Part shown: in pieces, positions 24,965 through 54,734 of the stretch
How positions within the stretch are numbered: the stretch's first letter is position 1
Layout: each line of letters opens with the position of its first letter
Source: Thermotogota bacterium
GTDB taxonomy: Bacteria; Hydrothermota; Hydrothermia; LBFQ01
Direction: 5' to 3'
Assembly: GCA_013154295.1 (NCBI GenBank)
Contig: JAADCS010000008.1
Span: 1-57,425, forward strand
Length of the DNA: 57,425 nt
Position numbers and translations under genes: made by a program
Notes under the pieces: model-generated
Databases searched by the model: none
Seen by the model: only the letters and a program-made list of their open reading frames with translations
Told to the model about the DNA's origin: nothing

Positions 24965-25147
24965 CTTTCACTTCCTACGATTGCAAGCCTTCATTGGAGA
25001 CTGGTAGTACGAACATCGCTTCGGTTTCACTCTGCGGCCAAACAGCCTCCAAGTGAAACCATCCCATGATCTGTTAATATGAATTTAATAGGCCTTTTCC
25101 CACCTTCTTGAACAAAACCCGTACCCAGCGAATGGCGATTTATGGAG
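24965..25147 (-). repeat. CRISPR-like mini-unit A: leader (25060-25147), 36-nt repeat (25024-25059), 22-nt spacer, degenerate repeat (24965-25001)
   Basis: The repeat matches 54648-54683 at 35/36 nt; leader motifs are shared with unit B. Confidence 0.7.
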
Positions 25148-25157
25148 TATCATTATC

Positions 25158-25901
25158 TCACTTTATCAGCACTTGAAATAGCGTCATGGCTATCACGGAA
25201 AGCGTCACGGCGGTAGCTACCATTTGGGAGGAAGTATCCTTGAGGGCATCCGATAGAAGCTCCGAAAAGGCTATCCAGAGCATAGCGCCGGCCGCGAACC
25301 CCAAACCCACGGGCAAAAAGGGTTTAAATATCTCAACGAAAACGTAAGCTGGAACTGCCATCAAAGGCTGGGGTAGCGATGTAAAGATGGCCCAAAGACC
25401 TGCCCATATCCAGGAAACTCCACGTGGCACCATCACCAGTGCAACAGCCAAACCTTCGGGGATGTTATGGACGGCTATGGCGAGACTTATAAAGGTACCG
25501 AACTTCTCTCCACCACCGAAGGAGACCCCAACCCCTATCCCCTCTGCAAAGGAGTGGGCTACCATCACACCTATGATTATCAGGACCTTACGGGCATCGG
25601 CACCGCTAAGTATCCCAAGGTGTATATCCTCGTGACCATGGAGAAGTTCATGACTGAGAATGATGAATCCTAAACCTGCCAAAACCCCCACCAACGTTCG
25701 CACCAAGCTGTAGCTCACCCCTTCGTTTATCAGACTGAAACTGGCTGTTATCATCAGGCCAGCGGCTATAGCGTTGGCTAGCCCCAAATATCGTCTTTTA
25801 AAACGCTTTACCACGGCAAAAGGCAAAGCTCCAAGACCTGTAGCCAGAGCGGTTATAAACGCATAGATAAAAACTTTCAAAACATCCACGGAACCCGACA
25901 C
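25158..25901 (-). CDS. ZIP family divalent metal transporter (ZupT/GufA-like)
   Basis: ATGLGALP, HSFAEGIGVGVSF and AIAVHNIPEGLAV. Confidence 0.92.
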   Translation of the reverse strand: MSGSVDVLKVFIYAFITALATGLGALPFAVVKRFKRRYLGLANAIAAGLMITASFSLINEGVSYSLVRTLVGVLAGLGFIILSHELLHGHEDIHLGILSGADARKVLIIIGVMVAHSFAEGIGVGVSFGGGEKFGTFISLAIAVHNIPEGLAVALVMVPRGVSWIWAGLWAIFTSLPQPLMAVPAYVFVEIFKPFLPVGLGFAAGAMLWIAFSELLSDALKDTSSQMVATAVTLSVIAMTLFQVLIK

Positions 25902-25910
25902 GCAAGTATT

Positions 25911-26987
25911 CTATGGCCTGACCGTTACTCCCCAACGACTCTCTATTTCCTCCAAGAGAGCGCTTAACAGCTCCTCCTCCTTGACTCTCCTAACTGGCTT
26001 TCCCCTCACAAATATAAGTCCCGAACCTTTGCCGGCGGCTATGCCTATGTCGGCCTCACGCGCCTCGCCAGGACCATTCACCTCGCAGCCCATCACGGCC
26101 ACCTTGAGCGGTAGTTTAAGCCCTTCGAGAGCCTTCTCAACCTTTTCGGCCAAACCTATAAGATCTATCTTGGTGCGGCCACAGGTGGGACAGGCTATCA
26201 GCATGATACCGCGACTGCGTATCTGCAAAGATTTCAGAATCTCCCAAGCTACCCTAACCTCCTCAACCGGATCTGCTGTCAGGGAAACTCGAAACGTGTC
26301 CCCTATACCTTCAGCCAAAAGAGTGCCTATACCCACGGAAGATTTTATAATACCCGTTTTTGGGGTACCAGCCTCCGTTACACCAAGGTGCAGTGGATAG
26401 TCTATCACTTGGGCGAGCTTGCGATAGGCCTCTATCATCTGGGGGACATAAGCGGACTTAGCTGAAACTACTATATCTTCAAATCCTTCGTCCTCAAAGA
26501 AACGTATCCAACGAACCGCACTTTCCACTATACCGTCCGTCGTGACACCACCATATTTGTCTATCAAATCCATCTCCAACGAACCAGCATTGACACCTAT
26601 ACGTATAGGAATACGGTTCGCCTTAGCTGCAGCTATTACCTCCCTGACCTTATCTTTACCACCTATGTTTCCGGGATTTATCCTTATTTTATCGGCTCCG
26701 GCATCGGCAGCCATCACGGCGATTCTGTGGTCAAAGTGGACGTCCGCTACGATAGGCACACGCCCCTTAAAGTTTTCAACGATTTTACGAAAAGCAGGGA
26801 TAGTTTTACGGGATGGAACAGCCACCCTGACTATCTCGCAACCTGCCTCAACCAACCTTTCAATCTGTTCTATGGTCCCCTCCACGTCGTTGGTATCCGT
26901 ACTGGTCATAGATTGAACGGCTATGGGATTATCTCCTCCGATGGCCACGTTACCTATTCTTACGACCCGTGTCTTCCGTCGCTCCAT
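25911..26987 (-). CDS. ispG: HMBPP synthase IspG (start moved to ATG 26987)
   Basis: VQSMT, ADVHF, RINPGNIG, HLGVTEAG, CPTCGR and MGCEVNGPGE. Confidence 0.97.
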   Translation of the reverse strand: MERRKTRVVRIGNVAIGGDNPIAVQSMTSTDTNDVEGTIEQIERLVEAGCEIVRVAVPSRKTIPAFRKIVENFKGRVPIVADVHFDHRIAVMAADAGADKIRINPGNIGGKDKVREVIAAAKANRIPIRIGVNAGSLEMDLIDKYGGVTTDGIVESAVRWIRFFEDEGFEDIVVSAKSAYVPQMIEAYRKLAQVIDYPLHLGVTEAGTPKTGIIKSSVGIGTLLAEGIGDTFRVSLTADPVEEVRVAWEILKSLQIRSRGIMLIACPTCGRTKIDLIGLAEKVEKALEGLKLPLKVAVMGCEVNGPGEAREADIGIAAGKGSGLIFVRGKPVRRVKEEELLSALLEEIESRWGVTVRP

Positions 26988-27000
26988 AACGATACCGATT

Positions 27001-28443
27001 CTAAGGCTGTAAGCCTTTAACGCGCTCATCTAGCGTTTTTAACCTACCTACCACCTTATCCTTACCCAGTACTTCCAAGAGTAGAAAGAGGCTCGGGCCC
27101 ACACCCACACCTGAAACTGCCACCCTGGTGGCGTGTATCAGAAGAGCGTGTTTTACCCCTAACTCATCGGCGTATCCTCGTAGCACTCTTTCGATCTCTT
27201 CTTCTTTCCAGCTCTCCAACCGTTCAAACCTGGTAGCTAACTCCCGCAAGTAGGTAAAGATGTTGGGATCCTTTAAGCGTTTTTTGACGGCTTTGCCATC
27301 CAAAGGATAGTTCTCCGAAAAAACGAAAACGCCGTACTCAAAGAAATCTCTAAGGGTTTTGGCCCTCTCTTTAAAAAGTTTCACGAGTTTTTCAAGATCT
27401 TCTCTCGAAACCGCATAACCGTGTCCCAGATCCGATAGATAATCGTTATACTCCCTTAAACGTTCCAGGAGTTCCCTATCACTTAAGGATCGGATGTATT
27501 CGGAATTCATCCAGTAAAGTTTGTTATGATCGAAGACCGACGCCGATTTGTTAACATCCTTTAGGTCGAACAGTTTTATGGCCTCTTCTTTGGAGATTAT
27601 CTCCCTGTTGTCACCGGGTGACCATCCCAGAAGAAGAAGATAGTTGAATAGAGCCTCCGGAAGGATCCCCTGAATCCTAAATTCCTCTAAGGACGTGGAA
27701 CCATGACGTTTGGAGAGTTTCTGTCTATCGGGACCCAATATCATAGGGAGGTGGGCAAACTGGGGTAGATCCCAACCCATGGCCTTGTATATAAGAATCT
27801 GCTTGGGGGTGTTGGGAATGTGATCATCTCCTCTAACGACGTGGGTTACGCCCATATCATGGTCATCCACCACAACCGCAAAGTTATACGTAGGGAAACC
27901 GTCGGATCTTACGATTATGAAATCCCCTCCCAAATCGTTGGTGTTGTAGGTTATGTCCCCGTGGACGATGTCATGGAAGGTTATCTCGGTATTATCGGGG
28001 ACGTAAAACCTCACCGAAAACCTGCGACCCTCCTCCTCATACCTCCAGCGTTCTTCGTCGCTAAGGTGGAGACACTTGCGTGAGTAGCGATAGGGAACAC
28101 CTTTACGGCGAGCCTCCTCTCTCTCCGCCTCCAACTCCTCCGGTGTGCAGTAGCACCTATAGGCTTTACCGCGATCTATGAGCTCATCGGCCACTTCACG
28201 GTACCTTTCCAGCCTCTCGCTCTGAAAGACCACATCCTCATCCCACTCGAGACCGAGCCATTTTAAACCATTTAAGATGGCATCGACCCACTCCGGCTTA
28301 TACCTCTGGCGGTCCGTATCCTCTATCCTTAAGAGAAACTTACCCCCTGTATGCCTGGAGTAGAGATAGTTAAAAATAGCCGTGCGTGCTCCACCCACAT
28401 GCAAGTAACCGGTGGGTGAGGGTGCGAATCTGGTCCTAACCAT
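27001..28443 (-). CDS. gltX: Glutamate-tRNA ligase
   Basis: RFAPSPTGYLHVGG, LRIEDTD and KLSKRHG. Confidence 0.97.
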   Translation of the reverse strand: MVRTRFAPSPTGYLHVGGARTAIFNYLYSRHTGGKFLLRIEDTDRQRYKPEWVDAILNGLKWLGLEWDEDVVFQSERLERYREVADELIDRGKAYRCYCTPEELEAEREEARRKGVPYRYSRKCLHLSDEERWRYEEEGRRFSVRFYVPDNTEITFHDIVHGDITYNTNDLGGDFIIVRSDGFPTYNFAVVVDDHDMGVTHVVRGDDHIPNTPKQILIYKAMGWDLPQFAHLPMILGPDRQKLSKRHGSTSLEEFRIQGILPEALFNYLLLLGWSPGDNREIISKEEAIKLFDLKDVNKSASVFDHNKLYWMNSEYIRSLSDRELLERLREYNDYLSDLGHGYAVSREDLEKLVKLFKERAKTLRDFFEYGVFVFSENYPLDGKAVKKRLKDPNIFTYLRELATRFERLESWKEEEIERVLRGYADELGVKHALLIHATRVAVSGVGVGPSLFLLLEVLGKDKVVGRLKTLDERVKGLQP

Positions 28444-28514
28444 GGTGGCAATTGTACCGCCGATTCATCAACGAATACCGAGGATGACGTCTTCGGTTGT
28501 ATAATACCGGCCTG

Positions 28515-30344
28515 ATGGTAAAAAGGTACATAGCGACAGACTGTGGGAGTACCACGACCAAAGCCATAATGGTCCAAAAGAAAGAAGAAGGTTGGAGACT
28601 CATAGCAAGAGGTGAAGCCCCAACCACGGTTGAAAAACCCTTTGAGGACGTTACCATAGGTGTCAGGAATGCCATCAGAGAACTGGAAGAGATAACCGGT
28701 ATAAGACTGTTAGACGAGGAAGGAAACATCATCAAGATGGAGAAGCCTACCGAAAGGGAGGGGACCAACTTGTACGTCTCCACATCCTCCGCCGGTGGTG
28801 GTCTCCAGATGTTGGTGGTGGGTGTGGTTAAAAATATGACTGCCGAGTCGGCCGCCAGAGCGGCTTTGGGTGCGGGTGCTATTGTGATGGATGTAATCTC
28901 CATAGATGATGGCAGGAAACCTTACGAAAAGGTTAAACGAATAAGGGAGCTAAGGCCGGACATGATCCTTTTAGCCGGGGGTGTTGAGGGGGGAACCGTA
29001 AAACACGTGGTTGAATTGGCGGAACTGATAGCGGCTGCCGATCCCAAACCTCGATTCGGCTCCACCTACAAGATGCCCGTGATCTATGCTGGTAACTCGG
29101 CAGCTCGCGAGGAGATAAAGAAGATATTGGGCGACAAGGTGGCCCTGTACATAGTAGATAATATCCGTCCCACCTTGGACACCGAAAACCTACATCCGGC
29201 GCGAGAAAAGATACACGACCTATTCTTGGAACACGTGATGCAACAGGCTCCCGGTTATGCCAAGCTCATGCGCATGGTAGATGCCCCTATAGTACCCACA
29301 CCTGGAGCCGTGGGCATGCTCATAGAAAGGGTGGCTCGCAAGGAGCAGATTGAGGTGTTAGGAGTGGACATCGGGGGGGCCACCACAGACGTTTTTTCGG
29401 TCTTTCGCAACTCCGAAGGCGAACTGGTTTTCAATCGTACCGTCTCTGCTAACTTGGGTATGAGCTACTCTATATCTAACGTAATGGTAGAGGCGGGAGT
29501 AAAGAACGTTCTACGGTGGATTCCCTTCAAGATAAGTGAGTCCGACCTTAAAAATCGTGTGCGCAACAAGATGATAAGACCCACGACCATACCCATGACC
29601 ATAAAAAGCCTGATAATAGAACAGGCCATAGCCAGGGAGGCTCTACGCTTATCCTTGGAGCAGCATAAGATGTTCGCCACCGAGCTGAAAGGTGTTCAAA
29701 AGGGAGGAGATATAGCCAGAGCCATAGGAGGTGAAGAGGAACGTACGCTGGTCAACATGATGAACCTTGATCTCATAATCGGATCGGGGGGTGTCCTCTC
29801 ACATGCCCCAAGGCGTGTCCAGTCCGCTTTGATGATGTTGGATGCCTTCCAACCGGAAGGTATAACTCGTCTCGCCGTAGACAGTATATTCATGATGCCC
29901 CATCTGGGTGTCATATCTACTATAGACGAGGAGGCGGCTTGGGAGGTGTTTGATAGGGACTGTCTCATCCGATTGGGGACAGTCATAGCTCCTAAGGTCA
30001 TTGCCAAAGAGGGAAAGCTTATACTCCAGGCCACCCTGGAGTATCCAGACGGCCACACTACTCATATAGATCTACACTTTGGCCAGATAGTGCGTATAGA
30101 TCTACCTTTGGGCCAGAGAGTGAAGATTCACCTGGACCCCCGTAGAGGTGTCGACGTAGGAGAGGGGAAGGGCAAGAAGATTGTTACCGAGGTCGAAGGA
30201 GGAGTGGTGGGGCTCATTTTGGATGGTAGAGGTCGGCCGTTGGTTATACCGGAAAACGAACATAAGAGGGTTGAAAAACTCTTGGAGTGGTTTAAAGCTT
30301 TAGACGTCTACCCCATGTTGGATAGTTTGGAAAAAGCGGCCTAA
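28515..30344 (+). CDS. GlmL/MutL-type (glutamate mutase L) actin-like ATPase (start moved to ATG 28515)
   Basis: DCGSTTTK, STSSAGGGL, VDIGGATTDVFS, RTVSANLGMSYS and IGSGGVLSH. Confidence 0.85.
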   Translation: MVKRYIATDCGSTTTKAIMVQKKEEGWRLIARGEAPTTVEKPFEDVTIGVRNAIRELEEITGIRLLDEEGNIIKMEKPTEREGTNLYVSTSSAGGGLQMLVVGVVKNMTAESAARAALGAGAIVMDVISIDDGRKPYEKVKRIRELRPDMILLAGGVEGGTVKHVVELAELIAAADPKPRFGSTYKMPVIYAGNSAAREEIKKILGDKVALYIVDNIRPTLDTENLHPAREKIHDLFLEHVMQQAPGYAKLMRMVDAPIVPTPGAVGMLIERVARKEQIEVLGVDIGGATTDVFSVFRNSEGELVFNRTVSANLGMSYSISNVMVEAGVKNVLRWIPFKISESDLKNRVRNKMIRPTTIPMTIKSLIIEQAIAREALRLSLEQHKMFATELKGVQKGGDIARAIGGEEERTLVNMMNLDLIIGSGGVLSHAPRRVQSALMMLDAFQPEGITRLAVDSIFMMPHLGVISTIDEEAAWEVFDRDCLIRLGTVIAPKVIAKEGKLILQATLEYPDGHTTHIDLHFGQIVRIDLPLGQRVKIHLDPRRGVDVGEGKGKKIVTEVEGGVVGLILDGRGRPLVIPENEHKRVEKLLEWFKALDVYPMLDSLEKAA

Positions 30345-31021
30345 CTAATCTCCGAGCGAAGTAGAAGCAAAATGTTGTAAAGAGCTTCAGCTAAGCTGTA
30401 GTGATGGAAATCCTTCCAGTTCTCCTTCGTTTCCCAGAAAGGTTGTAGGGTCCTGTAACCGTGTCTTTCGTAACTCAAAGCCTGGAACAGTAGTTCCAGT
30501 TTATCGGCGGCTCTAACCACCAGGGCCTCCGGTGAACTGCGACTCTCAAACTCCCTATAAAGATCCCTTATGCTGTTACCCACATCACCTAAAACCGACA
30601 CCACCTCGTTATAGGCCATAGCTTCTGCTCTCTCCAGCTCCTCGGAAGGGATATAACGGCGTGCTTCCAAATGAACGTCCCCTATGCGACTCTCACCCAA
30701 CTCATGGAATAGAGCCATGGTGGCAGCCTTGTAGGGATCAACTTTCTCACCTAACTCTCTTAGGAAAGCTGCCATGACGAAGGAGAGCATAGCTACACCT
30801 GTCGTATGTTCGGCTACACTTTCGGGTTCTTTGACACCGTAGTACCACCAACCGGACCTTGGAATCAGCTTGAGGCGTTGGCTATCCTCCATAAACTCCC
30901 ACACAAGATAAGCCAAAACATCTAACGGGGAACAACCTACCCTCTCTATAACCCTCTCTACCTTATCCAGTGGCAGAGCGAGTCTTTCGGCTAAGGAGCG
31001 TGCCTTACAGTCCTCCATCAA
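30341..31021 (-). CDS. HD-domain 5'-deoxynucleotidase (YfbR/HDDC2-like)
   Basis: LKxxPRSGW, ESVAEH, ALFHELGE (HE in place of HD) and ADKLE. Confidence 0.85.
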   Translation of the reverse strand: MMEDCKARSLAERLALPLDKVERVIERVGCSPLDVLAYLVWEFMEDSQRLKLIPRSGWWYYGVKEPESVAEHTTGVAMLSFVMAAFLRELGEKVDPYKAATMALFHELGESRIGDVHLEARRYIPSEELERAEAMAYNEVVSVLGDVGNSIRDLYREFESRSSPEALVVRAADKLELLFQALSYERHGYRTLQPFWETKENWKDFHHYSLAEALYNILLLLRSEIS

Positions 31022-32064
31022 CTGGGATCTATCTCAAAGAGGACCTTCATGGCTCTTCCCTGGAAGATAACGTTAAAAGCCTCTTCATACTCTTCCAAGG
31101 TCACCCTGTGGGTTATGAGGGGTGATAGATCGACCTTGCCGCTTTCAAGGAGAGCTGTGGTTATCGCCCAGGTTTCATACATTTTACGACCGACGATGCC
31201 ATAAAGCGTTAGGTTCTTCATGATTATGTCGTTCATAGGTACATCTATCCTGTTTTTGCCATAGAGACCCAACAGACCTACCCAACCACCGTTGGTTATC
31301 ATCTCAAAGCCCTGGTTCAAAGCGTTGGGGTTGCCCGACATCTCTATAACCACATCCACACCGTTCCCGGAGGTTTCATCCATGACAGCTGTACGCACGT
31401 CGTCTATCTCTGGATTGAGGACCAGATCCGCTCCCATCCTACTGGCTATCTTAAGGCGAAACTCGTTTATATCGGTGGCTATCACCTTGCGGGCACCGGA
31501 GGCTTTAGCCACGGCCACGGCCATGGCTCCTATGGGACCTGTTCCCACTACCAGGACGTTTTTCCCCGTTATATCGTCAGCCAGGACTGTATGTACCGCG
31601 TTTCCCATAGGCTCCATCAAGGGGACCCAATCTTTGGGTATGCTCTCTGGTATCTTCCAGGCATTCTCTGCCGGTATCACCATATACTCAGCAAAAGCCC
31701 CATCCCTATTGAATCCCAAAATTTCCACGTTCTTACATACGTGGGGTTTACCTATACGGCACTGGTAACACTTGCCACAGGCTATGTGGGTTTCAACTCC
31801 GATGTAATCTCCCACCTTGGGACTTTCAACGCCAGGTCCCACCTCTACTACCTCCCCAGCGGATTCGTGCCCCACTATACGTGGAAGTTGCCTCAAAGAG
31901 GTCTGGGCAAACTCGTCCCACTTGTAGATATGGACGTCGCTTCCGCAGATGGAAGCATACTTAACCTTTACCAAGATCTCACCAGGCCCGGGTTTTGGAA
32001 CATCGGTCTCTATCAACTGAAGACCCGGTCCCGGTTTGCTCTTTGCTACAGCTTTCATCTTCAT
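31018..32064 (-). CDS. tdh: L-threonine 3-dehydrogenase
   Basis: SICGSDVHIYKWD, GHE, ETHIACGKCYQC, EPMGNAVHT and GRKMYETW. Confidence 0.92.
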   Translation of the reverse strand: MKMKAVAKSKPGPGLQLIETDVPKPGPGEILVKVKYASICGSDVHIYKWDEFAQTSLRQLPRIVGHESAGEVVEVGPGVESPKVGDYIGVETHIACGKCYQCRIGKPHVCKNVEILGFNRDGAFAEYMVIPAENAWKIPESIPKDWVPLMEPMGNAVHTVLADDITGKNVLVVGTGPIGAMAVAVAKASGARKVIATDINEFRLKIASRMGADLVLNPEIDDVRTAVMDETSGNGVDVVIEMSGNPNALNQGFEMITNGGWVGLLGLYGKNRIDVPMNDIIMKNLTLYGIVGRKMYETWAITTALLESGKVDLSPLITHRVTLEEYEEAFNVIFQGRAMKVLFEIDPS

Positions 32065-32067
32065 AGC

Positions 32068-33132: not shown

Positions 33133-33141
33133 AGGTGGAGA

Positions 33142-36229: not shown

Positions 36230-36238
36230 GGAAGTATT

Positions 36239-38267: not shown

Positions 38268-38270
38268 AAG

Positions 38271-38343
38271 TGCCCCGCGAGGGACTCGAACCCCCGACCC
38301 GCGGATTAAGAATCCGCTGCTCTACCGTCTGAGCTAGCGGGGC
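38271..38343 (-). tRNA. tRNA-Lys(CTT)
   Basis: GCCCCGC TAGCTCAGACGGTAGAGC A GCGGA-TT-CTT-AA-TCCGC ... GGTTCGAGTCC GCGGGGC-A; no encoded CCA. Confidence 0.95.
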
Positions 38344-38356
38344 ACGTAGGTGGATA

Positions 38357-39355: not shown

Positions 39356-39364
39356 GCCGCGGGA

Positions 39365-40747: not shown

Positions 40748-40759
40748 GGTTTTTATATT

Positions 40760-41659: not shown

Positions 41660-41671
41660 GAACCTAAGATT

Positions 41672-44826: not shown

Positions 44827-44834
44827 GTGATATT

Positions 44835-45668: not shown

Positions 45669-45672
45669 GGCT

Positions 45673-46197: not shown

Positions 46198-46205
46198 AGA
46201 CGGGC

Positions 46206-46236
46206 ATTCTACAGGTGTCGTGTTCCTCTTTACAAT
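46206..46236. promoter_or_regulatory. Back-to-back -10 elements for sodC and lysS
   Basis: TAGAAT (minus, 46206-46211) lies 8 nt before the sodC ATG; TACAAT (plus, 46231-46236) lies 8 nt before the lysS ATG. Confidence 0.65.
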
Positions 46237-46244
46237 TACCCTCT

Positions 46245-47747: not shown

Positions 47748-47785
47748 AGCCGCATACCCTACTGCGGCGACCGTAGAATATCACA

Positions 47786-48289
47786 ATGAGGGTGTGGAGG
47801 GTGATAGTTAGCGTTGCGGTGGTAGGAGTCGGAGCTTTGGTAATTCTGTACTTTTTCATGGAAAGATTGGAGAGAAAGACGGTTCGTTTGGAGTTCAATG
47901 AGGAGCCTGCAGTCGTAGACACCTCGGATAACTGGCGTGTTGAGGATCTTCCAGAAAGATGGCCGGAGTTTTTTAACGATTCTCTCGCTGCCTTGGGGGA
48001 AGAACTCTTCGCCACACGCGGATGTAGAGTATGCCATACGGTAGGTGGGGGTGACTTGGTCGGTCCTGATCTAGCAAACCTGCGAAAGAGAGCCACCTAT
48101 AGATGGTCTCTGCTTATGCTTCTCAAACCGGACAGTATGCAACAGTACGACAGCACCGCCCGAAGGCTGCTGAAAGAATACGGTGTTCAAATGCCCAACC
48201 AAAAACTCACTCCTCAGGAGGCTGAAGCTATTCTACACTACGTCCTAAAAGGTGGCCGGAATCAGAACTCAAACAGCTCCGGTAGGTAG
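47786..48289 (+). CDS. Membrane-anchored monoheme cytochrome c
   Basis: N-terminal TM helix, CRVCH, GPDL and distal Met in QMPNQ. Confidence 0.9.
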   Translation: MRVWRVIVSVAVVGVGALVILYFFMERLERKTVRLEFNEEPAVVDTSDNWRVEDLPERWPEFFNDSLAALGEELFATRGCRVCHTVGGGDLVGPDLANLRKRATYRWSLLMLLKPDSMQQYDSTARRLLKEYGVQMPNQKLTPQEAEAILHYVLKGGRNQNSNSSGR

Positions 48290-49092
48290 GTCTTGAGCAT
48301 CTCGTTTATCAGGATCTTCTCCTGCTGTACGGCCACGGAGTCGTCCGTGTATATGACCGTACGTACGTTGGGGCCCTGAAGGGGACCGAACTTGTCGGGA
48401 GGTACCTGAACGTTCTCCTTTACCTCAACTGCCTCAACGAAGATCTGCGCTCCACTCTCGGTGAGAACCTCCCACCCCAAGGGTATACCCTTGTATATGA
48501 AGAGCCTTATGTCCTTGCCTTTGACCTTGTAAACGTCGGCTTTCTTACCCGCTATCTTCTTAACGAACAGCTGGTTGGGTTTTTGGATCATACCCTTGTA
48601 GACTATCCCCAGCTGGAGTTCCTTGGCGAACTTTTCAATCAGGGGACCTATCTTGTTCTTTTGTTCCGGAGAAAGTTTGTCCCACCTACTCTTCAGAATC
48701 AGGAATAGGTTGTTGGGACGCGCCGAACCTATGATAGAATCAGGTATGAAAGTATCTCTAAGCTCCTCCTTGATGTATTTGCGTTTGAAACGTCGACCGT
48801 AGGAGTATATCCACTCCTTGGTACCTATATCCCAACCTTCCAAGGGTACCTTACCGAACTTTACGGATATGACGTTCCGATGCTTGTGGGTCTTGAGGCC
48901 GTATTCGTCCCACCAAAGCTCCTCGTAACCCTCTTCATCACCCGAAACCTTATACTTTATGTATCCGCTCTTCACATCGTAGGGACGGAATACGTCCTCA
49001 ATGCTTAACTTGGAATAATCCTTCTTCTTCCCGCAGGAGAAAGCTCCAAAAACTATAGCCCCGCCTACGAACAACAAAAGCAATCTCCTCAT
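48262..49092 (-). CDS. Hypothetical lipoprotein
   Basis: Lipobox AFSC; beta-rich, with IAGKKADVY reminiscent of the LolA/DUF4412-like fold. Confidence 0.7.
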   Translation of the reverse strand: MRRLLLLFVGGAIVFGAFSCGKKKDYSKLSIEDVFRPYDVKSGYIKYKVSGDEEGYEELWWDEYGLKTHKHRNVISVKFGKVPLEGWDIGTKEWIYSYGRRFKRKYIKEELRDTFIPDSIIGSARPNNLFLILKSRWDKLSPEQKNKIGPLIEKFAKELQLGIVYKGMIQKPNQLFVKKIAGKKADVYKVKGKDIRLFIYKGIPLGWEVLTESGAQIFVEAVEVKENVQVPPDKFGPLQGPNVRTVIYTDDSVAVQQEKILINEMLKTYLPELFEF

Positions 49093-49142
49093 AAGTGGGG
49101 AAGTCTATTTCAACCCCCCAGTGGCTTATTCTAAGGAGGAAA

Positions 49143-49634
49143 CTACCCGTTTTCGTAGAGGTCAGTCAAGTCTTCGTAGGTCTCTCGGTGGCCTTCGTCG
49201 TACCTGTCGGGGTTCTCAAGTAGGTCCTCAAGGAGTTGTGGCGTCATGTCTTTTAAAGGGGTGCCGTTCAGGAGACCGGCAGGGGCGTGGTCGCATAGGC
49301 CTATACATTCGGTCTCCTCTACGAACACCTTCTTGGGGTCGGCCTTTTCCTTAGCCAGCTTTAGTAGATCGTAGGCACCCTTCTGCATGCAGGCCAGGTT
49401 GGTGCATATGGATAGTTTGTGTTTCGGTGTGGGTTCGAGGTGGAAAAAATGATAGAAGGAAGCTACGCTTACGATTTGGGTTTCGCCATAACCTAAAACT
49501 TCGTTTATAAGTTTTATACCATCCGGATGTATCCAACCGTACTCATCTTGAACTTCGTGTAAGGCCGCTATGAGGGCACTGTCAGCTTTCGGAAATATGC
49601 GTTTGACGTTTTCCAACCTTTCTTTCAGAGTCAT
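49143..49634 (-). CDS. nuoE: NuoE-like 2Fe-2S subunit
   Basis: LHEVQDEYGWI, VASFY, CTNLAC and ECIGLCDHAP. Confidence 0.88.
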   Translation of the reverse strand: MTLKERLENVKRIFPKADSALIAALHEVQDEYGWIHPDGIKLINEVLGYGETQIVSVASFYHFFHLEPTPKHKLSICTNLACMQKGAYDLLKLAKEKADPKKVFVEETECIGLCDHAPAGLLNGTPLKDMTPQLLEDLLENPDRYDEGHRETYEDLTDLYENG

Positions 49635-49690
49635 CTGGTTGGTATTCTAACAGAGAACGGTGACCCCGTTGCCCCTTTCAGGGCTACTTT

Positions 49691-51262
49691 CTATTTCCTA
49701 TCTAAAGCCGCCTTTAAAAGGCCTACGAAAAGGGGACCAGGATTCAAGGGGCGAGAGGTGTACTCCGGGTGAAACTGTACTCCTACATAGAAGGGATGCT
49801 CTGCCCACTCTATTACCTCAACCAACCCTCTCGTTTCCCCCACTATCTGTAGGCCACTCTTTTCAAAACTATCCCTGTAGGCGTTGTTGAACTCGTATCG
49901 GTGTCTATGTCTCTCCCTTATAATTTCCTTACCATATAGCTTGCGGGTCAGCCCCTCTCTAAGACTCACTTCCTGACCTCCGAGCCTCATCGTAGCTCCC
50001 AGGCGATCTATGTTCTTCTGGTCCGGAAGCAGATGTATCACAGGATGGGGAGTGTTGGGTTGAAACTCCTCACTGTGGGCATCTTTCAGCTTCAGTACGT
50101 TCCTGGCCCATTCCACTGTCATAAGTTGCATGCCTAAGCATATGCCCAATATAGGTACGGAATTTTTACGGGCAAAACTTATAGCGGATATTTTGCCCTC
50201 TATCCCTCTCTCGCCAAAACCTCCAGCTATGATGAGGGCATCGTAATCTTTCAGGTTTCGCGTTCCCTCCCTCTCAAGGCGTATAGCGTCTATAAGCTCC
50301 ACCTTGGGTTTAACTTTCAAATGGGCACCGGCATGAATAACGGCCTCTATAAGGCTTTTGTAAGCGTCCCGAACCTCTATGTACTTACCTACTATCCCTA
50401 CGCTCACCTCTCCCACGGAATTCTCCACCCTCTCCACGAAGTTCTCCCATGCTTCGAGGGAGCGGTCGGTATATATTCCAAGACCCAGTTTTTCAAATAT
50501 GAGATCGTCTAAATTCTGCTCTGCTAGGAGGAAGGGAACACGATATACGTTTTCTAAATCGTGAGCGCCTACGACGGCCCTTAGGGGGAGACTTGAGAAG
50601 AGGGCCAACTTTTTACGTGCTTCCGGAGTTAGGGGTTTTTCGCCTCTGGCGATTAAGGCGTCAGGCTGTATGCCTATTTCCCTTAGTTTCTGAACAGAAT
50701 GCTGGGTAGGTTTGGTCTTTATCTCCCCGATGGACTTGACGAAAGGCACGTAGGAAACGTGTAGGTAGAAAGAACTCTCTTCAAGCCCCATCTGACGGGC
50801 AGCTTCCAAAAAGGGAAGGCTCTCTATATCTCCCACGGTTCCACCTATCTCCACCACCGTTACATCGTACTCTCTGGCTACCTCCCTTATTCGCTCCTTT
50901 ATAAGATCTGTGAGGTGGGGTACAACCTGAACCGTGGCTCCCAGATACTTACCCTGGCGTTCTCTTTCGATCACCTCCAGGTATACCTGGCCGGCCGTTA
51001 GATTGTTCCTCTTAGATAGATCCTCGTTGAGAAAACGTTCATAATGCCCTATGTCCAAATCGGTCTCACCCCCGTCGTCCGTAACGAACACTTCTCCGTG
51101 TTGATATGGATTCATGGTACCAGCATCGTAATTGAGGTAGGGGTCTATCTTTATGATGCTGACTCTTAAACCACGACTCTTAAGAAGCAAACCTATTGAG
51201 GCTGAGGTTATTCCTTTACCCAACGAGGAGAGAACTCCACCTGTTACGAAAACCAACTTCAT
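49691..51262 (-). CDS. pyrG: CTP synthase
   Basis: TGGVLSSLGKG, DPYLN, KTKPTQHSV, GICLGMQ, RHRHRYE and QFHPE. Confidence 0.98.
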   Translation of the reverse strand: MKLVFVTGGVLSSLGKGITSASIGLLLKSRGLRVSIIKIDPYLNYDAGTMNPYQHGEVFVTDDGGETDLDIGHYERFLNEDLSKRNNLTAGQVYLEVIERERQGKYLGATVQVVPHLTDLIKERIREVAREYDVTVVEIGGTVGDIESLPFLEAARQMGLEESSFYLHVSYVPFVKSIGEIKTKPTQHSVQKLREIGIQPDALIARGEKPLTPEARKKLALFSSLPLRAVVGAHDLENVYRVPFLLAEQNLDDLIFEKLGLGIYTDRSLEAWENFVERVENSVGEVSVGIVGKYIEVRDAYKSLIEAVIHAGAHLKVKPKVELIDAIRLEREGTRNLKDYDALIIAGGFGERGIEGKISAISFARKNSVPILGICLGMQLMTVEWARNVLKLKDAHSEEFQPNTPHPVIHLLPDQKNIDRLGATMRLGGQEVSLREGLTRKLYGKEIIRERHRHRYEFNNAYRDSFEKSGLQIVGETRGLVEVIEWAEHPFYVGVQFHPEYTSRPLNPGPLFVGLLKAALDRK

Positions 51263-51298
51263 AGGGCAAAGGATTTTAAGTCCGTAGCGGGGAATAGG

Positions 51299-52618
51299 CT
51301 AAGGGTAGTTAGAGGGATCCAACAGGTTGCTAAGGATCTCTTCCAATTTCATTGCCCTTGAGCCTTTAATGGCCACCACCTCCCCATCCCACCTTGGGAT
51401 GTACTCGACCACCTGGCCGTATTCCGAAGCCAACCATCCTTTCTTACCACAGCGTTTGGCTTCCTCGACCGTAATCCTAGCCCACCGACCGAAACCGATC
51501 ACCTCCGATATACCGTAACGGCATATTCTCTCCCCAGCCCATCTATGCCAGCGCTCGGATTCCTTGCCCAATTCCAACATATCCCCGAAAACCAGTAGGA
51601 TCCTTTTGCCCCTATAGAGGAGCGAGAGGGATCTCAACAGGCCCTCAACTGAAAGCGGGTTGGAGTTATAGGCGTCGTTTACTATGATCTTGTCTCTCCA
51701 ACGTATTCTTTCCATTCTCATCGGTTGACCTTTAAAATTCTTAAGGGCGTTTTGTACATCCTTGAGAGGAATTCCAAAAAGCAGTGAAAAGGAGGCTACG
51801 GCTAAAGCGTTCTCCCCGAAACCAACGTGGGGGTAGGGGACGAAGAAGTCAAATCCCCTAAACCGGAAGGAAACACCTTCCTTACTCAAAGTTAGGTCCT
51901 CCCCTTTAAAATGCGACTTCTCGGAAAAGCCGTACCTGTAGTGGGGAACTTCCGGGAATATGGGGGCGTCCTCCGGCACTAGGACGAAACCGTCGGTATA
52001 ACGAAGAGCCGAATACTCCTCCATCACGGCGTTGTACGTACTTCCCAGACCTTCAAGGTGTTCCGGCCCTAACTTCGTATAGACTACATGGTTCGGTCGC
52101 GCGAGCGAGGATAATTCCGAAATCTCGCCGAGCCTATTCGTTCCAAGTTCAAGGACCCATACATCCTCGTTCCCTTCGGTATTGAGAATGGTTAGGGCCA
52201 CACCTATCAGGTTGTTGTAGCTCTTGATTGGCCCCCTCACCCTATAGAACCCTCTTAGGACCTGGAGCATCATCTCCTTGGTGGTGGTCTTACCTACGGC
52301 TCCCAGAATCGCAATCACCTGACCTCCAAACTGGCTACGGGCGTAAGCCACCAACCTACGTAATGCATATCTGACGTCCTCCACCACCACACCCGCCGTC
52401 ATTCCTGGTACTACCCTACGAGCCAAGACACCTGCAGCCCCTTTTCTTACAGCATCTGCCACAAAAGTATGGCCATCGTGTCTATCACCTTTAAGAGCTA
52501 CAAAGAGTTGCCCCACCTTTACGGAGCGGCTATCGACAGTTACGCCGCGCACTTCCTTGTCTTCTCCTACCAGATAACCACCGGTTATGCGGGCGATTTC
52601 AGAAAGTTTAAAACGCAT
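51299..52618 (-). CDS. murF: UDP-MurNAc-tripeptide-D-Ala-D-Ala ligase
   Basis: DSR, DGH, GKTTTKE, NN.IG, NDAYNSNP, GDMLELG and KGSR. Confidence 0.95.
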   Translation of the reverse strand: MRFKLSEIARITGGYLVGEDKEVRGVTVDSRSVKVGQLFVALKGDRHDGHTFVADAVRKGAAGVLARRVVPGMTAGVVVEDVRYALRRLVAYARSQFGGQVIAILGAVGKTTTKEMMLQVLRGFYRVRGPIKSYNNLIGVALTILNTEGNEDVWVLELGTNRLGEISELSSLARPNHVVYTKLGPEHLEGLGSTYNAVMEEYSALRYTDGFVLVPEDAPIFPEVPHYRYGFSEKSHFKGEDLTLSKEGVSFRFRGFDFFVPYPHVGFGENALAVASFSLLFGIPLKDVQNALKNFKGQPMRMERIRWRDKIIVNDAYNSNPLSVEGLLRSLSLLYRGKRILLVFGDMLELGKESERWHRWAGERICRYGISEVIGFGRWARITVEEAKRCGKKGWLASEYGQVVEYIPRWDGEVVAIKGSRAMKLEEILSNLLDPSNYP

Positions 52619-52738
52619 ACCCTAAATTCTAAGGTAAAAATGCTGTTACAACCTAACCTTGAACAACCTACGGGAGCAATGCAATGTATTGGCAAACTCC
52701 CAAAACCCCTTTCACATACGACCATAAAATCGGAATCT

Positions 52739-54445
52739 ATGAAAAAGGGTTTGGTTTTGCTTTGGATAATCCTGCCGATTTTTGCTTTCGCCGATACTCT
52801 GGCAATAATACACATAAACGATACCCATCACCATCTCTTTCCCCACGGAGAATGGAACGGTATATCGTCGGCAGCCCACAAGATAAGGGAGTTGAAGTCT
52901 TTCTATCCTAACAATCTGTTCTTTCATGCTGGCGATATTTTCGTGGGAGATTTTTCTTTTCCGTACGGTTTAGGACGGGCGGAGCTGCGCCTTTTGAGCC
53001 TCCTTTCACCGGACGCTATAACTTTGGGCAACCACGAGTTGGATATAACACCAGATAGTCTGTACTCGGTTTTAAACGATGTTGGAGGATTTACTACCTT
53101 CCTTTCGGCCAACTTGAGACCGGACACCATACCCCTAGCTTCTTTGGTTAGGCCCTATACCACCTTCAGCAGATCCGGTAGGTTGATATGCGTTTTAGGT
53201 TTGACTACAAACCAATTTAATTTGCTTAACCCAGCCCAAGATCCGGTACAGTTTGAAAACCCGGTCTACGTGGCTCAAATATACGAGGATACATTTGACC
53301 TTTTAGGGTGTGATCTACGGTTGATCCTATCCCATGCTGGTGTCCATATGGACAGTTCCATAGCTTCATCCACCCGTTCCTACGACCTTATCGTCTCTGG
53401 ACATACCCACGCCTGTTATGACGGGGCTGCCGCTATACCTAATGCCTCCGGCGATACCACCTATCTGGCAGAGGCCTGTGAACATTACAAGGCCGTGGGG
53501 CTGTGGTTGGTAGATATGGATAGCTTGAAGGTGATCGGTCACAGGCTCTTTAGGTTAAGTGATACGTCAGCTTTAGATCCGGAGTTCGTGGACTCGTTGA
53601 ACGTCCTTCAAGCTCGTATAGAGAGTCGTTATGGTCCAGTTTTCGACGACTCCGTGGCCTACGCGGTCCGTGAATTGACCAATGTACCTGACAGCTCCCA
53701 GTATCTGGATACACCCTTGGGTAACCTCATAACCGATGCTTTACGTTCCAAAGCCGCCAGTGATGTGGCCGTACTACCCTACTTCTATATTGCTGAACCT
53801 TTTACGGTAGGTCGAATCACCTCCAACGACGTTCTCATGGCTTTTCCTTATGGACTAAGTGAAACAGCTATCACAGGAACTAATATGTACCTTTTGAGAA
53901 TACATCTAACAGGAGCCGATTTTTACCGTCTCCTTTCAGTGGCCCAGGAGTTCGTGGGTAGCTCTCCCATCGTTCAGGTTTCGGGAATGGCATACCGATT
54001 TTCTCCCGATTCCAGCCCACCCCTTCTGCCGGAGGATATAACCATCGGCGGAGCTCCTCTGGATACTACGGCCGTTTACAGTGTTGCTGCCGATATGGGT
54101 ACTTTACATCTAGCCAGCCTTTTAGGAGTAACTCCCGTGATGGTTGAAACCACTTCTTACACTATGTTCGAAGCTATGCGAGAGTATTTCCGAGAGATGG
54201 GAGCTTTAAATCACACCTCCGAGGGACGCATAGCCTACAGAAATTCTTTGAACTTGGCCGAGCGAAGAGCGGTTGAGTCGGCGATTCGCGTTAGCGAACG
54301 CACCGTATCTTCCAACGAGCCTTTCAGTGTATATGATGCAACCGGAAGACTTCTGGCCCGTAACGTTTTCGTCTTTAGGACTCATAAGGTAGGGGTTTTC
54401 TTCGTCAAAAGGGGGAGGGAGGTTATCCGCATAATCTTGAGATGA
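52739..54445 (+). CDS. Secreted 5'-nucleotidase/metallophosphoesterase with a T9SS-like tail (start ATG 52739)
   Basis: Signal peptide MKKGLVLL..AFA; NDTH, AGD, GNHE, LSH and SGHTH; tail YDATGRL...GVFFV. Confidence 0.9.
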   Translation: MKKGLVLLWIILPIFAFADTLAIIHINDTHHHLFPHGEWNGISSAAHKIRELKSFYPNNLFFHAGDIFVGDFSFPYGLGRAELRLLSLLSPDAITLGNHELDITPDSLYSVLNDVGGFTTFLSANLRPDTIPLASLVRPYTTFSRSGRLICVLGLTTNQFNLLNPAQDPVQFENPVYVAQIYEDTFDLLGCDLRLILSHAGVHMDSSIASSTRSYDLIVSGHTHACYDGAAAIPNASGDTTYLAEACEHYKAVGLWLVDMDSLKVIGHRLFRLSDTSALDPEFVDSLNVLQARIESRYGPVFDDSVAYAVRELTNVPDSSQYLDTPLGNLITDALRSKAASDVAVLPYFYIAEPFTVGRITSNDVLMAFPYGLSETAITGTNMYLLRIHLTGADFYRLLSVAQEFVGSSPIVQVSGMAYRFSPDSSPPLLPEDITIGGAPLDTTAVYSVAADMGTLHLASLLGVTPVMVETTSYTMFEAMREYFREMGALNHTSEGRIAYRNSLNLAERRAVESAIRVSERTVSSNEPFSVYDATGRLLARNVFVFRTHKVGVFFVKRGREVIRIILR

Positions 54446-54557
54446 GCGTTTTTCATCCATAGCGATGTGCTGGATCTTTTAATGCCAATTCTTTTGGTGA
54501 ATAAGATCGGGTGTGGTGTATTCGGCTATGCTGGGCGTGATAGGTCATACTCTCTTG

Positions 54558-54734
54558 CTCCATAAATATCCCTTTTGGGTAAGGCATTCCTTCCAAGAGG
54601 TATACACAAACGGGCCGAAGTTTTAAAGGCGGTAGGCGAACGGGGTGGTTTCACTTGGAGGCTATTTGGCCGCAGAGTGAAACCGATTCAGGTGCTACGA
54701 GCTGGTAGTAGTCGGAGAAGCCAACGAGAGAAAA
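54558..54734 (+). repeat. CRISPR-like mini-unit B: leader (54558-54647), 36-nt repeat (54648-54683), 21-nt spacer, strongly degenerate repeat (54705-54734)
   Basis: Repeat GTTTCACTTGGAGGCTATTTGGCCGCAGAGTGAAAC; the 41-nt block 54646-54686 matches 25021-25061 (minus) at 40/41. Confidence 0.7.

Follow-up and report, generated by a model that had tools for sequence, protein, structure and literature searches.

REP and BIME sequences of enterobacteria and pseudomonads are short imperfect extragenic palindromes that occur in high copy number and in both orientations, with variable linkers and in mosaics. They are associated with RAYT (Y1) transposases, whose genes the repeats usually flank. RUP of Streptococcus pneumoniae is 107 bp long, occurs in 108 copies, inserts into IS elements, and is considered to move by means of IS630-Spn1, given the likeness in the terminal inverted repeats (TIRs) and the TA targets (PMC2229807). 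Correia/NEMIS elements of Neisseria are MITEs with TIRs of ~24 bp, a terminal TA, subtypes defined by internal segments, and an internal protein-binding DNA motif (PMC2229807). Here, we analysed two repeat units, copy A and copy B, in a window of 57,425 nt (the whole stretch of DNA studied). We consider it probable, at roughly 70%, that both are members of a lineage-specific IS630-type MITE family of ~100 copies that spread in trans and carries mosaic flanks, and that they are not CRISPR guides. The family is selfish DNA of a common type: its members are relics of small transposons built around a palindrome, and it belongs with the IS630-type MITEs while showing a mosaic structure like that of REP/BIME. 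RUP and this family share ~100 intergenic copies, termini like those of an IS630-family IS in the same genome, TA flanks, and copies inside IS elements, but the full-length copies here, which are non-coding, reach ~300–390 bp, three to four times the length of RUP. The family also differs from RUP in its mosaic internal modules, in a central 40-nt palindrome that outnumbers and outconserves the TIRs, and in its host, an uncultured WOR-3/Hydrothermia-like lineage. The family resembles Correia/NEMIS in being a MITE with TIRs, a terminal TA and subtypes distinguished by internal segments, but sequence and host are different, and IHF binds the Correia motif whereas the palindrome here has no known binder. 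Its extragenic imperfect palindromes with variable linkers in mosaic arrangement are like REP/BIME in form, which does not imply the same mechanism; unlike in REP/BIME, no Y1/RAYT gene was found here, and unlike in BIMEs, the palindromes are not paired or clustered in inverted orientation and many lie inside TIR-bounded elements.

Comparison of the two units bore out the basic description in the earlier note. The 36-mer is present in both copies (Table 1) with a single G/A difference, and none of 100 shuffled controls gave any match. When extended to TG + 36-mer + CGA, the units agree at 40 of 41 positions. Both copies have the inverted arms and inner hairpin, with an outer stem of 9–10 pairs and an inner GGCT/GGCC stem-loop, and each folds as single-stranded DNA with a dG of −11.8 kcal/mol (z −4.1 and −4.7). 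The convergent setting also holds by the neighbouring ORFs, which encode a ZIP transporter and an SDH-type protease around copy A, and a 5'-nucleotidase and an SPFH protein around copy B. The common upstream motifs CTCCATAAAT, TGGGTA and GGG(A/G)TG are visible in the alignment of the copies, but what had been taken for a leader is the left TIR followed by an upstream module.

Table 1. Parts of the two repeat units in the window.
Feature	Position	Strand	Basis or remark
Copy A left TIR, degenerate (TAATGATACTCCATAAATCGCC)	25134..25155	-	Boundary by eye
Copy A upstream (U) module, rest of the 'leader'	25062..25133	-	Alignment with copy B
Copy A 40-nt palindrome core, TG + 36-mer (25024-25059) + CG	25022..25061	-	90-copy conserved unit, fold
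Copy A downstream (D) module, holds the 22-nt 'spacer' and 'decayed repeat'	24836..25021	-	Profile hD2
Copy A right TIR (+ strand TAATATCTTTACCTCACAAAGGTTCC)	24810..24835	-	TA flank at 24808-24809
Copy B left TIR (TCATACTCTCTTGCTCCATAAATATCCC)	54545..54572	+	TIR HMM E 0.17
Copy B upstream U1 module	54573..54645	+	hU1 E 5e-19, match also covers left TIR
Copy B 40-nt palindrome core (36-mer 54648-54683)	54646..54685	+	90-copy unit, fold
Copy B downstream module, decayed/truncated	54686..54765	+	Right limit approximate

The left TIR of copy A begins 3 nt past the ZIP stop codon (25160–25158) and resembles the family left end TAATACTCTTTTACCGCATAAACGTC without its CTTTTAC stretch, giving no TIR HMM match at E ≤ 1. 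Its upstream module has no significant match to the U1 or U2 profile and is therefore a diverged version. The downstream module matches hD2 at E 4e-44 over model positions 1–222; copy A is 81% identical to the copy on contig C131 over 274 bp, with further matches on C104, C152, C81, C118, C89, C43, and C17, and its right TIR is a near-match to the right end at C17:14469–14487 (TAATACTTTTTACCTCACAAAGGTCC). Copy B is 75% identical to the C71 copy over 151 bp. Downstream of its hairpin there is no recognisable right TIR and no hD1 or hD2 match; the module stops ~20 nt short of the SPFH stop (54785), and over its initial ~15 nt it agrees with the beginning of the D module elsewhere in the family. 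The 21–22-nt segments that follow the hairpins, formerly read as unique spacers, return at other loci: that of copy A on C118, C131, C152, C104, and C163 with point changes, and that of copy B in similar form on C86, C5, C149, and C1. The supposed decayed second repeat after copy A, which matches the repeat at ~11 of 16 plus 7 bases (hand count), is a non-palindromic internal part of the recurrent downstream module.

A degenerate pattern (≤2 mismatches) located 99 dispersed copies on 60 contigs of the 1.97-Mb assembly; 44 sites were found at ≤3 mismatches (reversed control, 0) and 90 at ≤7 substitutions. The family fragments this MAG, with 28 of the 99 sites lying ≤700 nt from a contig end, as expected because repeats break assemblies. 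Almost all copies (87/90) lie outside the ORF-based gene map (coding fraction 0.879; binomial P 1e-75). Sixty-five copies have genes on both sides, with 32 tandem, 20 convergent, and 13 divergent settings, and convergent sites are enriched whether intergenic regions are weighted by count (P 0.0005) or by length (P 0.002). Copies show no preferred direction with respect to the genes beside them (16 same, 16 opposite). The nearest pairs among the 99 sites are 87, 239, 268, 376, and 882 nt apart, and similarity between copies reaches from about −150 to about +200 relative to the hairpin.

The earlier note had proposed genome-wide single-guide CRISPR-like cassettes, in which leader, repeat, short spacer and degenerate repeat form a solitary unit feeding an effector elsewhere. 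The 36-nt length and GTTTC...GAAAC ends do recall CRISPR mini-arrays and solitary units, one hairpin in the sister species (G001) lies 13 nt past a CRISPR array, counted from its final, truncated repeat, and a pair on C7 (68017 and 68104) is 87 nt apart with a degenerate second member. Against this, the 99 sites include no array, repeat-spacer-repeat periodicity and unique spacers are lacking, the 'spacers' belong to a few recurrent module families, and orientation is random. The palindrome here is complete and takes in both termini, unlike those repeats that leave a single-stranded 8-nt handle. No cas genes lie near the units in the window, as had been stated, but the genome does have a type I-B cas operon (C152) and, on C169, a canonical array of 17 repeats with a different 29–30-nt repeat, GTTCAAATTCCACAAGGTAGATTAAGAAC; the array repeat of G001 is GTTTGTAGCCTACCTATGAGGGATTGAAAC. 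Apart from tandem repeats within protein-coding sequence, a k-mer array scan of the assembly found the C169 array and nothing else. A long cas-adjacent array with the identical repeat was sought and was absent, so the window units are not decayed orphan arrays. Searches of 185,579 species genomes, of 241 million metagenome records and of IMG/VR gave no match to the hairpin pattern; hence no array with the window repeat is on record. Both 'spacers' gave 0 matches in viral contigs by an exact-match search, a weak test. We regard the cassette reading as extremely improbable, and this false CRISPR lead is removed.

Another proposal was a REP-like or structured non-coding RNA family. Its first half, a REP-like dispersed family, is essentially right and can be narrowed, the units probably being the cores of IS630-type MITEs with mosaic flanks, but the RNA half found no support. 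A family of RNAs, or of cis-acting RNA elements that stabilise 3' ends or serve as processing sites, would agree with the stable hairpin and with the enrichment at convergent gene ends, a place where transcripts could gain protection from a 3' hairpin. Compensatory changes, however, are nearly nil (seen at three of 18 pairs, in no more than 1 of 67 distinct sequences, and in 0 at the other 15), the equal split of orientations shows no bias toward genes, the full element folds like shuffled sequence (z −1.06), and no U-tract follows the hairpin in copies A and B. At the gathering threshold, Rfam returned only three tRNAs in the window, and at E ≤ 1 on five repeat-bearing loci a single chance-level match elsewhere and none on the repeat. 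An RNA function is thus highly improbable.

Analysis of the element ends links the family to IS630. The full-length layout comprises a 26-nt TIR, an upstream module of ~90–120 nt, the 40-nt palindrome, a downstream module of ~180 nt, and the inverted TIR. In a subset of copies, the left and right ends share TAATACTCTTTTACC(G/C)CATAAA(C/G)GTC in inverted orientation, and a search with the 19-nt TIR core gave 46 matches versus 10 in the reversed control. Nearly all ends read TA followed by ATACTCTTTTACC...; the TA directly before most ends could equally be a target duplication or part of the repeat, since in congeners the intergenic DNA has diverged too far, and the gene order has changed too much, for an empty site to be compared. 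A TIR was detected near 25 of 90 hairpins (within 300–400 nt, HMM E ≤ 1; 3 have both ends, 16 just the left one and 6 just the right one) with a 36-column HMM so insensitive that it missed the clear-by-eye right end and the degenerate left end of copy A. The left end of an IS in the same genome, TAATACTCTTTAGCCCCATTTGCGTC, is identical to the 26-nt MITE end at 19 positions, the terminal 11 included (hand count). The ORF that follows this end has an IS630 transposase as its best NCBIfam match (E 4e-12, partial, below cut-off), and a C-terminal DDE_3/IS630 fragment lies at C12:1–291 (E 4.5e-16; PF13358 above cut-off). This IS630-family IS is present in fragments at contig ends, as N- and C-terminal pieces plus a truncated second element on C12, with no intact copy in the assembly, and one copy of the transposase gene is interrupted by a MITE (C32 end/C168 start). 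The elements are small, non-coding, multi-copy and intergenic, as MITEs are, with TIRs, seen for a subset only, that resemble those of an IS in the same genome.

In the proposed mechanism, an IS630-family transposase of this genome would bind the common termini and insert the elements at TA dinucleotides, spreading them in trans. After selection, the surviving copies would be almost solely intergenic and disproportionately often between convergent gene ends, and they would decay, lose ends, suffer arm deletions, and recombine into mosaic upstream/downstream combinations. The downstream module was seen at at least 13 loci, and U1 is combined with D1, D2, D3, or D6 or lacks a shared downstream module. 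Of the 90 copies, 32 match none of the four main flank module profiles and 33 have no BLAST-detectable flank in common with any other copy. When copies were ascertained by their flanks, 60 of 66 profile matches reaching the hairpin-proximal end had a hairpin at ≤7 mismatches; the other six comprise two truncated hairpins, one armless, and three intact ones with 8–9 mismatches to the single consensus, which are one variant and one opposite-orientation copy counted twice. A hairpin subfamily with a 13-nt deletion in one arm occurs at at least four loci, indicating spread, or at least duplication, without need for an intact hairpin.

The best-conserved part of the family is the 40-nt palindrome, TGGTTTCAC...GTGAAACCA. 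Consensus match is 0.91–0.94 in the hairpin versus 0.64–0.73 in flank columns, and pairwise identity 0.89–0.90 versus 0.77–0.82 (of 70 pairs that could be aligned, 66 are more alike in the hairpin), a contrast inflated by the ascertainment of copies through the hairpin. Several observations count against MITE-driven spread, among them the small share of hairpins with a TIR nearby, the 32 copies without a flank module profile, and the lack of an intact IS630 copy in the assembly. In addition, the palindrome is better conserved than the termini needed for transposition, and hairpin and IS do not co-occur across genomes. An alternative, which we consider unlikely, is that the palindrome itself spreads or is maintained in a REP-like manner, by a hairpin enzyme or a host DNA-binding protein, and that the MITEs merely captured and amplified it. 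It would account for the roughly twofold higher conservation of the hairpin, for the sharp edges TG...C(A/G) of the conserved unit, outside which information content is ~0.1 bit, for the copies without a common flank or module profile, for three bare copies in unrelated contexts in G001, and for the mosaic flanks resembling BIMEs. In 16–22 of 67 distinct sequences, pairs 2/33 and 11/24 are disrupted with no compensating change, so that sequence and not pairing is conserved, which fits protein recognition. On the other side, the 92.9%-complete assembly has no Y1 (RAYT/IS200) or TnpB-type match, PF01797 giving none in six frames with a control positive in 6 of 14 genomes, and no Y2 match, a result that carries no information because the Y2 control matched 0 of 14 control genomes. 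Even the 'solo' copies retain ~15 nt from the start of the downstream module, suggesting descent from longer elements. Moreover, possibly orthologous hairpins in this genome and its sister (G000:C86 and G001:C33) differ at 8 of 36 positions (hand count), close to the coding-DNA divergence of the two genomes (73–82% identity), and this locus therefore bears no sign of constraint. Both of these hairpins lie upstream of the same unknown gene. Under the IS630-type MITE reading, simple descent alone probably does not account for the persistence of the central palindrome; a putative sequence-specific DNA-binding protein, a role in propagating the element, or gene conversion may be responsible.

Comparison with relatives revealed that the family is almost exclusive to one uncultured hot-environment bacterium. 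G001 has three hairpins, with no MITE module or TIR at them and no match to this IS630 transposase, and the pattern is absent from the other 39 relatives. The hairpin is also missing from the congeners G002 and G004, although both encode transposases related to this one at ~50% identity. The nearest named relatives point to a WOR-3/Hydrothermia-like lineage. The family offers a clear-cut case from nature of a burst of IS630-type MITEs limited to a single species, in an uncultured lineage associated with thermophiles. Of wider interest, conservation and spread are greatest in the internal palindrome, not in the termini that the transposase binds, and the palindrome stands bare in the sister species. 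Since bare copies occur there, the palindrome could be more than transposon cargo, a sequence-specifically recognised DNA element older than the burst, captured by an IS630 MITE and multiplied ~30-fold here, although we judge this version improbable. If the palindrome is a protein-binding site, a host or foreign cis-element would have been amplified genome-wide by a MITE.

In one concrete, putative form of this improbable reading, the repeats may act on ParB or on another protein that binds palindromes, either titrating it or diverting it. The outer arms of the hairpin hold the parS heptamer half-sites GTTTCAC and GTGAAAC, 22 nt apart. The hairpin is not parS itself, a contiguous 16-bp palindrome of two 8-bp half-sites, as its half-sites are split by the 22-nt inner hairpin. 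Canonical parS was not found in this assembly, and each of six congeners has exactly one perfect parS. ParA and ParB are retained here, and the helix-turn-helix segment of ParB is the same as that of the congeners except for one residue just before the segment.

The 36-mer GTTTCACTTGGAGGCT(G/A)TTTGGCCGCAGAGTGAAAC is present in the window at 25024-25059 on the minus strand (copy A) and at 54648-54683 on the plus strand (copy B), as an earlier note on this DNA had claimed, with matches in none of 100 dinucleotide-preserving shuffles. The two copies are identical at 40 of 41 positions, counting TG on the 5' side and CGA on the 3' side of the 36-mer. Each folds, as single-stranded DNA, into a hairpin whose outer stem of 9-10 pairs is separated by a small internal loop from an inner GGCT/GGCC stem capped by a 4-nt loop, with a free energy of -11.8 kcal/mol (z of -4.1 and -4.7 against shuffles). 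The ORFs converge on each copy, confirming the convergent gene setting described for both, and the upstream motifs said to be shared are seen in the pairwise alignment of copies A and B. The only Rfam matches in the window are three minus-strand tRNA genes (3844-3917, 23222-23295 and 38271-38343).

Analysis of the whole assembly (1.97 Mb in 169 contigs, here given C-numbers, the window being C54; 48.6% G+C, 92.9% completeness, 6.1% contamination) revealed that the hairpin is dispersed and multi-copy. The 36-mer pattern at up to 3 mismatches matched 44 sites, versus 0 for the reversed control; a substitution-only scan at up to 7 changes gave 90 distinct sites, the set behind all flank analyses, while a degenerate pattern for the palindrome, allowing up to 2 mismatches, gave 99 sites on 60 contigs, 28 of them with a contig end within 700 nt. 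The nearest pairs are 87, 239, 268, 376 and 882 nt apart, so the hairpins form no array. The genome's only close pair, at C7:68017-68141 (locus L121, 1501-1625), consists of an intact palindrome, a 51-nt gap and the degenerate palindrome GTACCACTATGAAGCTGCTTGACCGCAAAGTGATAC. Against a gene map (coding fraction 0.879) assembled greedily from ORFs of 100 aa or more that do not overlap, rather than taken from a gene caller, 87 of the 90 hairpins are intergenic (P about 1e-75), and the other three are inside ORFs of ~110 aa that may be spurious. Because of contig ends, 22 sites have no gene on one side. The 65 sites with genes on both sides comprise 32 tandem, 20 convergent and 13 divergent contexts, with convergent sites over-represented relative to backgrounds of 14% by intergenic-region count (P 0.0005) and 16% by length (P 0.002). 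In the tandem contexts, hairpin and genes share a strand in 16 cases and lie on opposite strands in 16.

When the 90 copies and their 500-nt flanks were compared all against all, the likeness extended well beyond the hairpin, from about -150 to +200 around it; 35 of the 90 are still alignable with another copy at ~60 nt upstream and 39 at ~80 nt downstream. Twelve aligned copies of one downstream type terminate in ...GACCTTTATGGGGTAAAAGAGTATTA, which is the reverse complement of TAATACTCTTTTACCGCATAAACGTC, the start of the commonest upstream module, and the two ends are therefore terminal inverted repeats (TIRs). A 19-nt TIR core at up to 4 mismatches gave 46 matches, versus 10 for the reversed control. 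TA lies directly 5' of ATACTC at nearly all ends, while the bases just outside vary. With its ends identified as TIRs, copy A spans about 25155 to 24810 (~345 bp), as a miniature inverted-repeat element (MITE) with upstream (U) and downstream (D) modules around the hairpin.

Anatomy and neighbours of the two window copies, and loci of the arm-deleted hairpin (contig given where outside the window)
Feature	Position (strand)	Detail
Copy A, degenerate left end	25155-25134	
Copy A, hairpin core	25061-25022	
Copy A, downstream module		match to hD2, the profile of module D2, E 4e-44
Copy A, right end	24835-24810	TA alongside at 24808-24809
Copy A neighbour	25158-25901 (-)	ZIP transporter
Copy A neighbour	23821-24669 (+)	SDH-type ClpP-like protease
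Copy B	start ~54545	left end and U1 module (E 5e-19); right part decayed
Copy B neighbour	52469-54445 (+)	5'-nucleotidase-like protein
Copy B neighbour	54785-55708 (-)	SPFH/Band-7 protein
13-nt arm-deletion variant	C144:13247	
13-nt arm-deletion variant	C75:18542 / C146:13154	
13-nt arm-deletion variant	C156:7094	
13-nt arm-deletion variant	C19:9744	

The TIRs resemble the end of an IS630-family element of the same genome. The start of a multi-copy ORF lies at the ends of three contigs (C154:11023-11407, C32:24497-24867 and, on the minus strand, C118:1-468); among NCBIfam models it best matches NF033545, the IS630 transposase (E 4e-12 over positions 11-98 of 299), with a score under the cut-off because the ORF is partial, and it also matches Pfam HTH_28, HTH_23, HTH_32 and HTH_29. 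An IS630 C-terminus is found at C12:1-291 (NF033545 E 4.5e-16, with DDE_3 above cut-off). The minus strand of C12 also carries, at about 6200-7060, a second, different, truncated IS630 gene, and further short fragments are found at the ends of C1, C71 and C28. No repeat in the assembly is longer than 730 bp, so IS copies have evidently been collapsed or left unassembled. The IS end, TAATACTCTTTAGC(C/T)C(C/T)ATTTGCGTC, lies ~45 nt 5' of the start codon and is identical to the MITE end at 19 of 26 positions by hand count, including the first 11; a related IS in the congener G002 opens with the same 11 bases. At C146:12973-13268 and C75:18361-18656 (96.6% identity), an inverted MITE with a truncated, half hairpin is fused to the IS630 left end, as would result from movement of the composite as a single unit. 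IS630-family elements duplicate TA. Copies of the MITE would have been mobilised in trans, perhaps with TA duplication at insertion. One MITE sits within a transposase gene copy that is split between the end of C32 (C32:24497-24867) and the start of C168 (C168:1-300). This is similar to RUP of S. pneumoniae, which PMC2229807 presents as the classical IS630-dependent MITE and describes as also inserting into IS elements. The family is a previously undescribed IS630-type MITE with REP/BIME-like mosaicism, and its history is best explained by a species-level burst followed by decay, deletions and inter-copy recombination.

One of the readings offered by the earlier note was that the units may be CRISPR-like single-guide cassettes. 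The genome encodes a type I-B cluster, cas2-cas4-cas1-cas8b, at C152:163-3842 (cas1 matching the type I-B model TIGR03641 at E 4e-125), and carries a canonical array at C169:6649-9338 with 17 repeats GTTCAAATTCCACAAGGTAGATTAAGAAC (29-30 nt) and spacers of 35-38 nt; comparison of this repeat with the 36-mer revealed that the two are unrelated. A decayed array lies ~1.3 kb upstream of the canonical one. The supposedly different spacers recur across the family: the 22-mer of copy A is found with point changes 3' of the hairpins at C118, C131, C152, C104 and C163, and the segment of copy B resembles those at C86, C5, C149 and C1. Neither proposed spacer had an exact match in IMG/VR. From the mapped MITE anatomy of copies A and B, the region taken for a leader is the left TIR plus an upstream module, and the presumed spacer with its decayed repeat is a downstream module. 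The observation is real and its CRISPR reading is wrong; guides of this kind fail on their defining features, and we give them almost no credence.

Several features are at odds with a plain MITE. A TIR HMM of 36 columns, built from 23 ends and searched within 300-400 nt of the hairpin at E up to 1, detected a TIR for only 25 of the 90 hairpins, far fewer TIRs than hairpins (both ends in 3, left alone in 16, right alone in 6), a count from an insensitive model that overlooked both the right end of copy A, clear by eye, and its degenerate left end. Profiles of the main modules, U1, U2, D1 and D2, recognised at least one flank in 58 of the 90 copies and none in 32, and 33 of the 90 share no BLAST-detectable flank with any other. 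The flanks are mosaic, with U1 (26 copies) joined to D1, D2, D3, D6 or nothing shared, a pattern that may have arisen by recombination between copies. What is conserved is a 40-mer with sharp limits, TG-36-C(A/G), although solo copies weakly keep ~15 nt at the start of the downstream module. Within one and the same set of copies, the consensus match is 0.91-0.94 for the 40-mer versus 0.64-0.73 for flank columns; in BLAST-alignable pairs (global alignment was discarded because unrelated sequence scored 0.75), identity is 0.89-0.90 for the hairpin versus 0.77-0.82 for the flank, and the hairpin is the more identical in 24 of the 26 pairs aligned upstream and 42 of the 44 aligned downstream, a contrast inflated by the ascertainment of copies through the hairpin. 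When copies were ascertained by flank, 60 of the 66 profile matches reaching the hairpin side carry the hairpin at up to 7 mismatches; the other six are three intact hairpins scoring 8-9 mismatches against the single consensus (one variant, and a single oppositely read copy that entered the count twice), two truncated hairpins and one lacking both arms. A subfamily at no fewer than four loci has lost 13 nt from one arm, between two TTT runs. At C144:2330, both arms are lost and the loop region alone is left between intact U and D modules.

The earlier note had also considered a dispersed REP-like or structured RNA family. Double changes occur in at most 1 of 67 distinct sequences at 3 of the 18 pairs and in none at the other 15, and pairs 2/33 and 11/24 are disrupted in 16-22 of the 67. 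Compensatory covariation is essentially absent, indicating that the sequence is kept and not the pairing. A structured RNA family, for all the stability of the predicted fold, fails its defining tests and is very improbable. The dispersal and mosaic form of a REP-like family hold, and the units are best read as IS630-type MITEs rather than structured ncRNAs.

Comparison with relatives suggested a narrow distribution. In exact form, the degenerate pattern had no match in 185,579 species represented by one genome each, in 241 million metagenome records or in IMG/VR, collections from which the own and very near genomes are possibly excluded. The hairpin at up to 3 mismatches is absent from all 40 relatives, in which the exact outer arms gave one unrelated match and otherwise none. 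A looser pattern in 12 genomes of the family matched 99 sites in the own genome, 3 in the same-genus sister species G001 and 0 in the other ten. For orientation, the own IspG shares 72% identity with a 'Candidatus Hydrothermia bacterium' MAG and 59-61% with WOR-3 MAGs, the nearest named relatives, which places the organism in that lineage. Relatives of the transposase (~50% identity) are encoded in G002, G004 and G009, which carry no hairpin, and the MITE terminus was not found in G001-G004 and G006, save for one weak match. In metagenome contigs, an arms-only pattern gave 17 single sites (L177-L193) that have the 9-nt outer arms in common and unrelated inner sequence, about a chance number by an estimate made without a shuffled control. 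About half of them are long perfect or near-perfect 38-nt palindromes, which probably reflects how common long palindromes are. We found no description of this repeat in the literature searched.

The one unusual trait of the family is its dominant, conserved central palindrome, which outlasts the termini in the own genome and stands bare in the sister species: the three hairpins of G001 carry the same GG(A/G)TG...CGAT borders as the own copies, with no module or TIR likeness, and G001 has no match to this IS630 transposase. In the main rival reading, the palindrome itself would be what is maintained or mobile, as a REP-like unit or protein-binding site captured by MITEs. However, the possibly orthologous hairpins at C86 and G001:C33, 5' of the same unknown gene, differ at 8 of 36 positions by hand count, approximately the coding-DNA divergence of the two genomes, which argues against constraint, and we consider this origin unlikely. 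One bare palindrome of G001, at C16:592-627 (locus L138, G001:C16:200-1100), lies 13 nt past the last, truncated repeat of a CRISPR array and, going by the ATTGAAAC repeat end, on its trailer side, a single case that could be chance.

The outer arms of the hairpin are two parS half-site heptamers, 22 nt apart, and the assembly encodes ParA and ParB (C142:12331-13870). A perfect parS occurs exactly once in each of six congeners, in five of them just 5' of the ortholog of C88:4709-5692. In the own assembly, the perfect parS 16-mer gave no site at up to 2 mismatches, and the corresponding position (C88:4500-4709) has none; the best candidate is TGTTCCACATGAAACG, at 2327-2342 in the window, and its 2 mismatches against the degenerate consensus equal the chance expectation. 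A change in ParB specificity found no support, the helix-turn-helix segment matching that of the congeners save for one residue just before it. An assembly gap is the simplest explanation for the absent canonical parS, and a functional link between the repeats and ParB is of low probability.

Synteny gave no lead on breakpoints: the genes beside both window copies are on different contigs in all six congeners, but gene order is also rearranged on the side of the ZIP gene that has no hairpin. Among partner-gene candidates, a 213-aa ORF family with no Pfam match is represented by C158:114-752 (minus strand) and five fragments on C49, C12, C161, C86 and C104, and its members are often at contig ends. 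A hairpin lies 80-240 nt 5' of the members on C86, C104 and C49, and also of that on G001:C33 (L173). Multiple copies of the family occur throughout the genus and in one neighbouring genus, at 1-10 matches per genome in 8 of 41 genomes. A role as a REPtron-like partner was rejected on account of 3-10 matches in four of the five hairpin-free same-genus genomes, and of 9 in the same-family G009, which has no hairpin. Searches of the own assembly for RAYT and TnpB partners gave no matches, nor did one for IS91 (Y2), run without a working control. Twelve ORFs from multi-copy families of at least 100 aa contain no Pfam transposase domain; nine are biotin carboxylase, Uma2 endonuclease, TPR, YceI or pentapeptide-repeat proteins, and three are matchless, one of these being the IS630 gene read in the antisense frame. 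Tandem repeats of ~99 nt (33 aa), which by eye from the translation read like ankyrin repeats, occur in multi-copy ORFs at C71:1-1109, C32:315-3249, C25:2-760, C118:36498-36977 and C155:3965-4447. The Uma2-family endonuclease gene has four copies (C164:165-728, C50, C38 and C151), mostly at contig ends.
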